From assembly GCA_965227515.1 (NCBI GenBank), contig CBDDFZ010000001.1, positions 3,264,001-3,328,000 on the forward strand: 64,000 bases of DNA. The letters are read 5' to 3'. The DNA is from Alphaproteobacteria bacterium. Lineage in GTDB: Bacteria > Pseudomonadota > Alphaproteobacteria > CALKHQ01. Shown piece by piece: positions 57,314 through 58,680 of this stretch. A program made the position numbers and the translations under genes. The notes beneath the pieces were generated by a model. That model did no database searches. It was not told where the DNA came from and saw only the letters and a program-made list of their open reading frames with translations. Every line of letters begins with the position of its first letter. The stretch's first letter is position 1.

Positions 57314-57418
57314 TAGAGCATGATCATTTAAGTCGGCACCAGCCCTCTCCCCCACCCGGCCGCCCAACGAAATTATGCTGCTGGGTGGCCGGGTGGGGGA
57401 GAGCGACTGTCTTTTGTG

Positions 57419-58351
57419 TCAAGCGTTTTGCCATGGGGTCCGATCTCTGATGATGGCATTGAGGATGACGAGGAGCTTGCGCATGACGGCGACGAGCGCG
57501 AGCTTCTTTGGCTTTCCGGCATGGAGCAGGCGTTGATAGAAGGCCTTGAGGATCGGGTTCCGTTGGCTGGCGACCAAGGCTGCCATGTAAAGGGTTGTGC
57601 GCAGATGACGCCGTCCCCCACGGATGGTGCGCTTGCCGCGCATGGTACCGCTGTCCCTGTTGAACGGCGCCAGGCCGACGAGGGCAGCGATCTTCTTTCG
57701 GTCGAGACGTCCGAGTTCAGGTAGGTCGGCGATCAGCGCACGGGCGGTGATATCGCCGACACCAGGCACGCTCTTGAGCAGGTCTTCGTCCTCGCGCCAA
57801 GCCGGTGTGCCGCGGATCGTCTCATCGAGCTCGCGTTCGAGGGCGGAGAGTTCTTTCTGCAGGGCCGCCAGCAGGCGGTCGACGCTCTTGACCATGCGTC
57901 GGCTGGTGAGCTGGCTGCGGCGATTGCGCTCGGCGGTCATCATGACGACGATCTGGCGCCGGCGGGCGATCAGCTCGCTGAGCACCTGGGTCTGGGTGTC
58001 GGCCAGCGGCCGAGGCTCGGGCCGGACCCGCTCGGCAAACAGCGCGATCGCCTTGGCATCTAGCGCATCGGTCTTGGCAAGCAGGCCAAGGGCACGCGCG
58101 AAGTCCCGGATCTGGCGCGGGTTGACCACGGCCAGCGGCAGTCCGGCCGTGGCCAGCGCCGCGGCCACCGTGACCTCGTAGCCGCCAGTCGCCTCCAGCA
58201 CGATCAGGCCCGGCGACAGCCCGGCCAGGTCCTCGACAAGACTTGCCAGAGCGTCACCGTCTCGTGCGACAGCAAAGCTCTGGCCGGACGGCAAGACATG
58301 CACGTCGAGCCGCGCCTTCGAGACATCAATGCCAACGAAAACCTGTTCCAT
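57419..58351 (-). CDS. IS110 DEDD recombinase/transposase
   Basis: GIDVSK, LEATG, KTDALDA (DEDD) and catalytic Ser in RDSG. Confidence 0.95.
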
Positions 58352-58512
58352 CACCCGTCCTTGCAAATGCGGTCTCGCACGGCGGACCAAGCGACTGTTC
58401 GGGTTCATTGGAACAACGGGCAGGGTGCCAAGCTCTCCCACGGTCTTCGAGACCAAGGGCCTTGCGGCCTCCCGCCCGTCTCCGCCACCGCTACAATAAC
58501 CGCAGCGGCCAC
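58352..58512 (-). ncRNA. Putative bridge RNA (ends approximate)
   Basis: Contains GGCCCT and GGGAGAG (target guides) and ACAGTCGCTTG and TGCAAG (donor guides) in the expected order, each pair flanking a hairpin. Confidence 0.8.
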
Positions 58513-58680
58513 AAAATGAGATACAAGGGCTGGGGCAGATTCAGCGTAAGCTGATCCCGATCTAGCCGGATCGAGGCCGGGGCGGCTTGTGCCCCGGCCT
58601 CGCCCACACGTTTGGCGCTTGCTCCCGGATGACGGCCACTTTACCAATCAGTGACCACCCCAACGCACGGGAGGCCCCCC

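Follow-up and report, generated by a model that had tools for sequence, protein, structure and literature searches.

Insertion of IS110 elements into palindromes that resemble repetitive extragenic palindromic (REP) sequences has long been known (Choi 2003; Tobes and Pareja 2006; both cited in PMC11208160). The reading of such targets by IS110 elements through bridge RNAs is already well documented for IS621 and ISPpu10. In IS621, the residues D11, E60, D102, D105 and S241 form a composite active site (PMC11208158). The circular form has been described to rebuild a promoter across the core (PMC11208160), and a preprint on ISPpu10 reports that bridge-RNA pairing is combined with the structure of the target DNA. 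How does a new locus compare with these systems? The window analyzed here is a 64,000-nucleotide stretch of the genome of an Alphaproteobacteria bacterium (assembly GCA_965227515.1, contig CBDDFZ010000001.1, positions 3,264,001 to 3,328,000 of the forward strand). Its positions 57402-58527 carry, on the minus strand, what I read from the sequence, with a probability of about 0.9, as an intact insertion sequence (IS) of the IS110 subgroup and of the IS621 type, that is, a bridge-recombinase element.

The element is 1.1 kb (1126 nt) in length, has a CT core at either end, and consists of the following parts.

58526..58527, minus strand: CT core on the left side (4/4 copies have CT at each junction).
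58352..58525, minus strand: left end of 174 nt, the predicted template of the bridge RNA (fold and consensus of 8 relatives).
57419..58351, minus strand: recombinase gene, 310 aa plus stop, with D9, E53, D95, D98 and S234-G235 (Pfam, NCBIfam and IS621 alignment).
57404..57418, minus strand: right end, ending in ..ACAGTCG, the left donor (LD) (sequence, copies and relatives).
57402..57403, minus strand: CT core on the right side (4/4 copies have CT at each junction).

On the minus strand, the host sequence ..gctgaatctgccccagcc is followed by the CT, the left end, the open reading frame (ORF), the 15-nt right end, the second CT and the host sequence ctcccccacccggcc. The left end (58525-58352) begins with TGTATCTC and is non-coding; from the core to the ATG it measures 174 nt, and the 175 nt given by a first, sequence-only reading of the window had to be corrected. 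The ORF starts with this ATG and has 310 codons (58351-57422), its stop codon lies at 57421-57419, and the 15 nt after the stop codon (57418-57404) terminate in ACAGTCG. The left junction is cagcc-CT-TGTAT and the right junction is ACAGTCG-CT-ctccc, so that the left flank of the window copy itself is AGCC. As read off the sequence, the end TGTATCT.. is not an inverted repeat of the end ..ACAGTCG, so that the element lacks terminal inverted repeats.

The recombinase matches Pfam PF01548 (E 4.4e-22, residues 6-146) and PF02371, the C-terminal Tnp domain (E 4.7e-22, residues 190-273), and passes the NCBIfam model NF033542, 'IS110 family RNA-guided transposase', with 230.4 bits at a cut-off of 140. 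A sequence search of the PDB returned two matches only, ISCro4 (9t56, E 9.9e-40) and IS621 (8wt6, E 4.5e-37), both of which cover the recombinase from residue 3 or 4 to residue 307. D9, E53, D95 and D98 align with D11, E60, D102 and D105 of IS621, and S234-G235, in the motif RDSGT, align with S241-G242. By profile and alignment, the protein is an IS110 family recombinase with its catalytic residues kept, and the element is intact at the sequence level, as the sequence-only reading had claimed. Elements of the IS1111 subgroup have their guide RNA in a long right end; here the right end is just 15 nt in length and the structured RNA lies upstream of the gene. At 90% identity, the protein cluster of the recombinase has three members, all of them variants from this genome and none of them named, and no near match to the element was found in the plasmid collection.

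The definitions of the guides were taken from PMC11208160 and PMC11208158. By definition, the right target guide (RTG) and the right donor guide (RDG) pair with the top-strand core and right flank (PMC11208160). With the left target guide (LTG) and the left donor guide (LDG), the left end can be divided as follows.

58484..58509, minus strand: 5′ stem-loop of the predicted RNA (consensus pairs in columns 17-42, several compensatory changes).
58410..58483, minus strand: predicted target-binding loop (TBL) module, with outer stem, LTG side, hairpin and RTG side (single and consensus fold).
58456..58461, minus strand: LTG GGCCCU, in the same sense as the four left-target bases (LT4) plus CT, so that it would pair with the bottom strand.
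58442..58454, minus strand: predicted hairpin between LTG and RTG, GGUCUCGAAGACC (GGTCTCGAAGACC, 58454-58442; single and consensus fold).
58433..58439, minus strand: RTG GGGAGAG, the reverse complement of CT+CTCCC.
58432, minus strand: candidate handshake base C after the RTG, able to pair with donor position 7 (G).
58353..58404, minus strand: predicted donor-binding loop (DBL) module (single and consensus fold; invariant in the 8 closest relatives).
58390..58398, minus strand: LDG ACAGUCGCU, the last 7 nt of the right end plus CT (9/9).
58360..58365, minus strand: RDG UGCAAG, able to pair with CT+TGTA with one G:T wobble.
58359, minus strand: candidate handshake base G after the RDG, able to pair with target position 7 (C).

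It was found that the RTG matches CT+CTCCC at 7/7 positions and the LDG matches ACAGTCG+CT at 9/9, while the RDG matches CT+TGTA at 5/6 with an rG:dT wobble at the remaining one. The RDG and its handshake base (58359..58365) overlap the AAGGA ribosome-binding site. The strings that the sequence-only reading had named (GGCCCT at 58461-58456, GGGAGAG at 58439-58433 and TGCAAG at 58365-58360, minus strand) are all in place, and so is the hairpin that it had put between the target guides (58454-58442). Two of its assignments stand in part. GGCCCT as the left target guide fits the GGCC flank of two other copies of the element at 6/6 positions, but it fits the AGCC flank of the window copy, as any AGCC site, at 5/6, where the sixth position may be an rG:dT wobble. 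The string ACAGTCGCT(TG) at 58398-58388, which had been counted as an 11/11 match to the donor, is present, but the guide itself is 9 nt (7 plus CT) followed by two bases, the last of which is the first base of the hairpin stem.

The left end has a predicted minimum free energy of -79.4 kcal/mol (z -2.81), and 1/200 shuffles was as stable. As a single sequence, it is predicted to fold into a 5′ stem-loop and two modules of stem, internal loop and hairpin. GGCCCU would lie in the 5′ loop side and GGGAGAG in the 3′ side of the first module, and ACAGUCGCU in the 5′ side and UGCAAG in the 3′ side of the second module. A consensus fold of 8 sequences (the window and its 7 closest relatives, every left end being 174 nt in length) retains the 5′ stem-loop, the TBL stem and hairpin, and the DBL stem and hairpin. 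In these models, the guides are placed on the loop sides of the two modules, and the two-loop bridge-RNA layout of IS621-type elements, as proposed in the sequence-only reading, is borne out. Compensatory changes were seen in 10/51 consensus pairs, most of which belong to the 5′ stem-loop or to the first module's outer stem. The second (donor) module is identical across the 8 sequences and is therefore uninformative on structure either way.

Do the guides change with the flanks in related elements? A scan with one genome per species gave 282 relatives, of which 80 were kept; the closest of these 80 has a protein identity of 74-75%. After two partial matches (L081 and L082) had been dropped, 78 loci were examined together with the window. 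Ends were recognized by a TGTAT lying 140-265 nt upstream of the ORF and by a TTGAY..CAGWYR motif downstream. Both ends were found at 50 loci, which represent 30 distinct elements. The donor ends of the 30 elements are conserved (..ACAGTYG-CT-TGTAT..), while their flanks are variable. The reverse complement of CT plus the first five right-target bases (RT5), that is, an exact RTG, is present in the element's own left end in 23/30 cases, versus 32/822 mismatched pairs (3.9%). For the LTG (LT4+CT in the own left end) the figures are 10/30 versus 36/838 mismatched pairs, and for the LDG (the last seven donor bases, LD7, plus CT) they are 11/30 versus 0/554. The LDG follows the donor variants ACAGTTG, ACAGTCA and ACAGATA, often with the last core position being C rather than U. 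Within the closest clade, these combinations of RTG and flank (core plus right target) occur.

RTG GGGAGAG: flank CTCTCCC.
RTG GGGTGAG: flank CTCACCC.
RTG GGATGAG: flank CTCATCC.
RTG TGGTGAG: flank CTCACCA.

In all 23 elements with an exact RTG, the base that follows it complements donor position 7 (20 C:G and 3 U:A), and in 16/23 the base that follows the RDG complements target position 7. These covarying bases agree with the handshake guides of PMC11208158. Among the relatives, the guides also keep their positions and the order LTG-RTG-LDG-RDG.

Might the left end be no more than the G+C-rich untranslated leader in front of an ordinary transposase gene, and the guide matches chance similarities in it? 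To test this, the part of the left end that lies downstream of the donor end (154 nt) was subjected to 200,000 mononucleotide shuffles. The shorter guides are compatible with such an origin, since the LTG 6-mer (with A or G as the first base) arises in 10.9% of the shuffles and the RDG 6-mer (wobble allowed) in 4.3%. The RTG 7-mer arises in 2.7% and the LDG 9-mer in 0.053%, and the two arise jointly in just 4/200,000 shuffles. Together with the order and positions kept among the relatives and the covariation of guides and flanks, this makes a chance origin hardly credible.

Some relatives are present in several copies: the loci L020-L031 and L037 belong to one metagenome-assembled genome (MAG; 13 loci fetched), and L011-L015 belong to another (5 loci). 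They sit in short conserved sequences, (G/A)CAC-CT-CTCC and CCC-CT-CACCC, and the CCC-CT-CACCC sites adjoin inverted GGGTGAGGGG motifs. The sequences suggest that host-specific palindromic repeats are the usual address in the clade of MAG relatives.

In the host genome of the window element (2 contigs, 5.52 Mb), 4 full-length copies were found. Over 1126 nt, the copy in the window does not differ from the one on contig 2, and the remaining two have 11 and 12 differences per 1126 positions. None of the differences is in a guide, and two that fall in RNA stems retain the pairing as G:U. The ORF is open and CT is found at both ends in 4/4 copies. The left flank before CT is ..RGCC in 4/4 copies (2 AGCC and 2 GGCC), and the right flank after CT is CTCCCCCACCCGGCCACCCA in 4/4 (..RGCC-CT ... 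CT-CTCCCCCACCCGGCC). There are also two truncated left-end remnants (loci labelled L005 and L006), both directly 3′ of ..GGCC-CT. The sequence-only reading, which expected other copies in RGCC-CT-CTCCC, is thus matched by all 4 full copies, each inside one arm of a palindromic repeat that measures about 130 bp, and the two remnants follow GGCC-CT as well. In the window, the interrupted repeat is divided into two parts.

58528..58565, minus strand: left part of the interrupted host repeat, from the terminal CTAG to ..gctgaatctgccccAGCC, which supplies the left target (LT) (same outer arm in many uninterrupted repeats).
57313..57401, minus strand: rest of the host repeat, with what remains of the interrupted arm, then the loop, the second arm (intact) and, up to CTAG, the outer arm.

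The repeat unit of about 130 bp is a long imperfect palindrome with CTAG at both bounds, and it has two kinds of outer arm, ..caccGGCC and ..cgccAGCC. It is present about 100 times in the genome. Its 17-nt arm CTCTCCCCCACCCGGCC has 147 genomic occurrences, which form 54 perfect inverted pairs (24-38 nt apart) and 39 arms with an imperfect partner. A 20-mer of the arm, allowing at most 1 mismatch, gave 225 hits in the own genome and 0 in 30 other genomes, of which 3 belong to the same family and 27 to the same class; in 3 of these 30, the element gave matches, all of them short and weak. By these comparisons, the repeat is a lineage-specific palindromic mosaic repeat. The sequence-only reading had called it a miniature inverted-repeat transposable element (MITE) of the host; a host repeat is indeed the target, but the MITE label is unproven. 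A REP element mobilized by a REP-associated tyrosine transposase (RAYT) was considered and rejected, since no RAYT gene is visibly tied to the repeat: the genome has two PF01797 matches, and the repeat arms nearest to them are 5.8 kb and 15.5 kb away. A literature search for the arm motif found nothing.

The perfect 11-mer RGCCCTCTCCC, which comprises the left target, the core and the right target, has 181 genomic sites (93 with A and 88 with G), versus about 23 expected from base composition. Canonical arms contain 158 of the 181 sites and variant arms contain 21 of the other 23, giving 179 in the repeat overall. The 11-bp address is thus almost confined to the repeat arms, so that the element lands in intergenic repeats. 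In contigs of the runs X2 and X4, the element was found at about 99% identity; these contigs diverge from the window 3 nt past the core and continue with ..CGGTGCC.., the repeat's other outer arm (GGCC type). Thus, the same site is used elsewhere. An empty-site allele at 57402-58527 was also sought, and no bridging contig was found in the runs X2, X3, X4 and X8.

All 11 bp of the site are situated at the base of a palindrome arm of 27 bp, and the right target runs toward the loop. It is conceivable that the choice of site is set mainly by the structure of the palindromic DNA, a hairpin or cruciform read by the protein, and that RNA pairing is secondary. Every insertion is inside a long palindrome, the RNA-DNA pairing covers 11 bp only, and the ISPpu10 preprint reports a target stem-loop as an extra specificity determinant. 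I regard this as unlikely, because the guides of the relatives change with their flanks (23/30 versus 3.9%) and because the single-base switches from GGGAGAG to GGGTGAG, GGATGAG and TGGTGAG retain pairing with CTCTCCC, CTCACCC, CTCATCC and CTCACCA. Moreover, a structural gate would supplement RNA guidance and not replace it.

Several repeat copies and remnants have features of their own. The remnant at G000:C1:3870887-3870943 (G000 being the own genome) is 57 nt in length, has 98% identity, and is fused to the repeat outer arm ..gcagattcagcg..; thus, the remaining IS and the palindrome have been deleted there. The other remnant, at C1:1500199-1500289, is derived from a diverged relative (84% identity over 91 nt) and ends within the RTG. 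Some repeat copies hold a 36-nt nested palindromic module (ATTTCCATGCGG..CTTTTGG) directly after CTCTCCC in one arm (for example, G000:C1:741326, 1319600 and 3868734). A contig of run X3 (of low depth, perhaps from another repeat copy) has this module at the second arm of the window, 57351-57353. The nested module indicates that the repeat is a mosaic, and the 11-bp target of the IS is left intact by it. Arms that continue into ..ccaaaagggagcgc had been considered as a second IS in the same repeat, and this was rejected, as they represent the 36-nt module inside the arm. An unoccupied intact repeat copy of 130 bp, CTAG to CTAG, lies at 59160-59289 of the window and has two perfect targets, AGCCCTCTCCC at 59194-59204 (plus strand) and one of the GGCC type at 59251-59261 (minus strand). 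The first CTAG of this empty repeat provides the TAG stop codon of a gene for a ferritin-like (bacterioferritin-type) protein (58651-59163). Thus, the ferritin-like gene is flanked by the IS-occupied repeat and the empty repeat.

A course of events can be proposed from what is directly observed: the anatomy of the element, the matches of its guides, the specificity of all copies for their site and the covariation in relatives. For the circle and its junction promoter, for the geometry of pairing and for the chemistry, it relies on inference from the work on IS621. Two further features would be needed.

57417..57422, minus strand: TTGACA, candidate -35 box, which overlaps the stop codon and would be functional only on the circle junction.
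58518..58523, minus strand: TATCTC, candidate -10 hexamer of the circle-junction promoter, at a 17-nt spacing to TTGACA.

Excision would generate a circle in which the CT core links the right end (..TTGACA..ACAGTCG) to the left end. By analogy with the described circular forms, the junction may rebuild a promoter, TTGACA-17 nt-TATCTC, and the same 17-nt spacing recurs in 27/30 relatives. From this promoter, the 174-nt left end would be transcribed as the bridge RNA, followed by the recombinase mRNA. The bridge RNA would fold into the 5′ stem-loop and the target- and donor-binding loops, in the last of which ACAGUCGCU and UGCAAG would read the circle junction ACAGTCG-CT-TGTA. The 11-bp address would be RGCCCTCTCCC. 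A tetramer of the DEDD/Ser recombinase would then exchange strands at the CT core and insert the element. A promoter scan of the integrated copy, made on that copy and not on the junction, found no sigma-70-like site and no terminator.

Some of the results weigh against the reading of the element as an intact bridge-recombinase system. Only 4 of about 180 available sites are occupied and the two remnants are truncated, which is compatible with low activity. The pairing of the LTG is short (4 + 2 bp), and the CAA that lies 5′ of it has no counterpart in any flank. The fold predicted for the free RNA pairs three bases of the LTG with three of the RTG, and neighboring loop bases are partly paired; thus, the loops are not fully open in silico. 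An exact RTG match is absent in 7/30 elements, and the set used for covariation was selected by conserved end motifs, which favors the same donor ends. The -10 candidate TATCTC is weak, lacking the usual final T, and both the RNA transcript and the circle are predictions.

Might the element then be a decayed or silent relic, no longer mobile, whose guides still match from past function? The few occupied sites among about 180 perfect ones, the two truncated left-end remnants, the weak -10 candidate and the lack of a promoter in the integrated copy would all be expected of a relic. A relic is nevertheless improbable in view of the two copies on different contigs that are identical over 1126 nt, the four open ORFs with catalytic residues kept and guides unchanged, and the element of about 99% identity that lies in a different repeat copy in the contigs of other runs.

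Other mobile elements were also found nearby and elsewhere in the genome. Two consecutive ORFs at 56548-57299 of the window (plus strand) match DUF4096 (E 3.1e-27) and DDE_Tnp_1 (E 3.2e-11). They represent an IS4/IS5-type transposase in two frames, and about 14 nt separate its end from the CTAG with which the interrupted repeat ends. CTAG-like sites serve some elements of the IS5 group as insertion sites. The genome also contains a second IS110-family element, unrelated to the first; it has 21 DEDD-domain matches, typically with an open frame of 372 aa (for example, G000:C1:392354, 1596013 and C2:935473), and its left end begins with GTAGATGGGCTAACGG. In 10 copies examined, its left flanks are varied and none is the palindromic repeat. 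A third IS110 type has 2 copies (C1:1350462 and C1:1793268).

A scan of positions 57000-59000 with Rfam gave no match at the gathering score. The miRNA-like hits at 57336-57409 correspond to the palindrome only and are chance hits of the hairpin type. Below its gathering score of 55, the model of sX15 (RF02234), a small RNA (sRNA) of Xanthomonadaceae, matches window positions 58345-58485 on the plus strand, opposite the predicted bridge RNA (35.5 bits, E 0.0011). The same model matches the left end of a distant relative, also on the opposite strand (L066:999-1156, minus strand; 46.1 bits, E 1.4e-4, again below 55). It has been reported that sX15 and its complementary partner asX7 are plasmid-borne and confirmed by Northern blotting, with 10 homologues in a Stenotrophomonas chromosome (PMC3300014). 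To judge from the sequence matches, the sX15/asX7 pair may be the left end of an IS110 element, one strand of which would be a bridge RNA. The papers found that name both sX15 and Xanthomonas are, judged by their titles, not on IS110.

The finding leaves the known mechanism unchanged. What it adds is a natural bridge-recombinase element whose donor ends, 11-bp address, two guide pairs, handshake bases and candidate junction promoter can be read from the sequence. With about 180 natural target sites, 4 of which are used, it is a convenient orthologue for studying guide length, wobble tolerance and the role of the palindrome. If the window copy is active, it would represent an orthogonal, naturally validated bridge system and a test case for the gating of insertion by a long target palindrome. 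For annotation, the finding explains an insertion sequence that is confined to one repeat family, and the leader should be annotated as an RNA gene.

Among the known systems, IS621 of E. coli (PDB 8wt6) shares several features with the window element. Both have a DEDD RuvC-like domain and a Tnp domain with a catalytic Ser, both have a CT core, and both have a left-end RNA of about 175 nt in the order of 5′ stem-loop, target-binding loop and donor-binding loop, as predicted here. The LTG and LDG are in the same sense as the left flank plus core, the RTG and RDG are the reverse complement of the core plus right flank, the handshake bases have candidates here, and the target is a palindromic intergenic repeat in both. 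In contrast, the proteins are only distantly related, with a near full-length alignment at E 4.5e-37 and 310 aa in the window recombinase versus 328 residues in the 8wt6 chain. The IS621 guides, as described in the source, have 9 bases in the LTG and 4, extendable to 7, in the RTG, whereas the window element has 4+2 and 5+2. Its donor ends (ACAGTCG-CT-TGTAT) and the position of its 11-bp site, wholly at the base of the 27-bp palindrome arm, are further differences. The ISCro4 transposase (9t56), compared by protein sequence alone, is the best match with a solved structure (E 9.9e-40, residues 3-307 of 310), and its domains come in the same order. ISPpu10 of Pseudomonas putida is likewise an IS110 element, with all described insertions in one repeated intergenic palindromic sequence. 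According to the preprint, however, its stem-loop is short (about 5 bp) and lies 5′ of the left target and includes it, while the site in the window is in a long palindrome with the partner arm 3′ of the site.

The IS110 elements of alphaproteobacterial MAGs (L011-L033) are closer, with a protein identity of 68-75%, a 174-nt left end, an identical donor-binding loop, identical donor ends and the same RNA architecture. Their target guides and flanks differ (CCC-CT-CACCC, CCCC-CT-CATCC and CAC-CT-CTCC). Thus, each clade is tuned to another host sequence. It is perhaps an even bet, judging from these sequences, that, within the bridge recombinases, the window element makes up a compact sub-clade of its own together with its MAG relatives. 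Such a sub-clade would be marked by a protein of 310 aa, a 174-nt RNA, a fixed donor ACAGTYG-CT-TGTAT, a shifted guide split, and a target loop that has been re-tuned repeatedly to lineage-specific palindromic repeats, with a single rG:dT wobble at LTG position -4 serving both AGCC and GGCC arms in the window element. Relative to the described systems, the window element is particular in its shifted guide split (4+2 and 5+2), in the possible wobble for both arm types, in a site inside a long palindrome, and, by comparison with the 90% protein cluster and the plasmid collection, in its sequence distance from the described elements.

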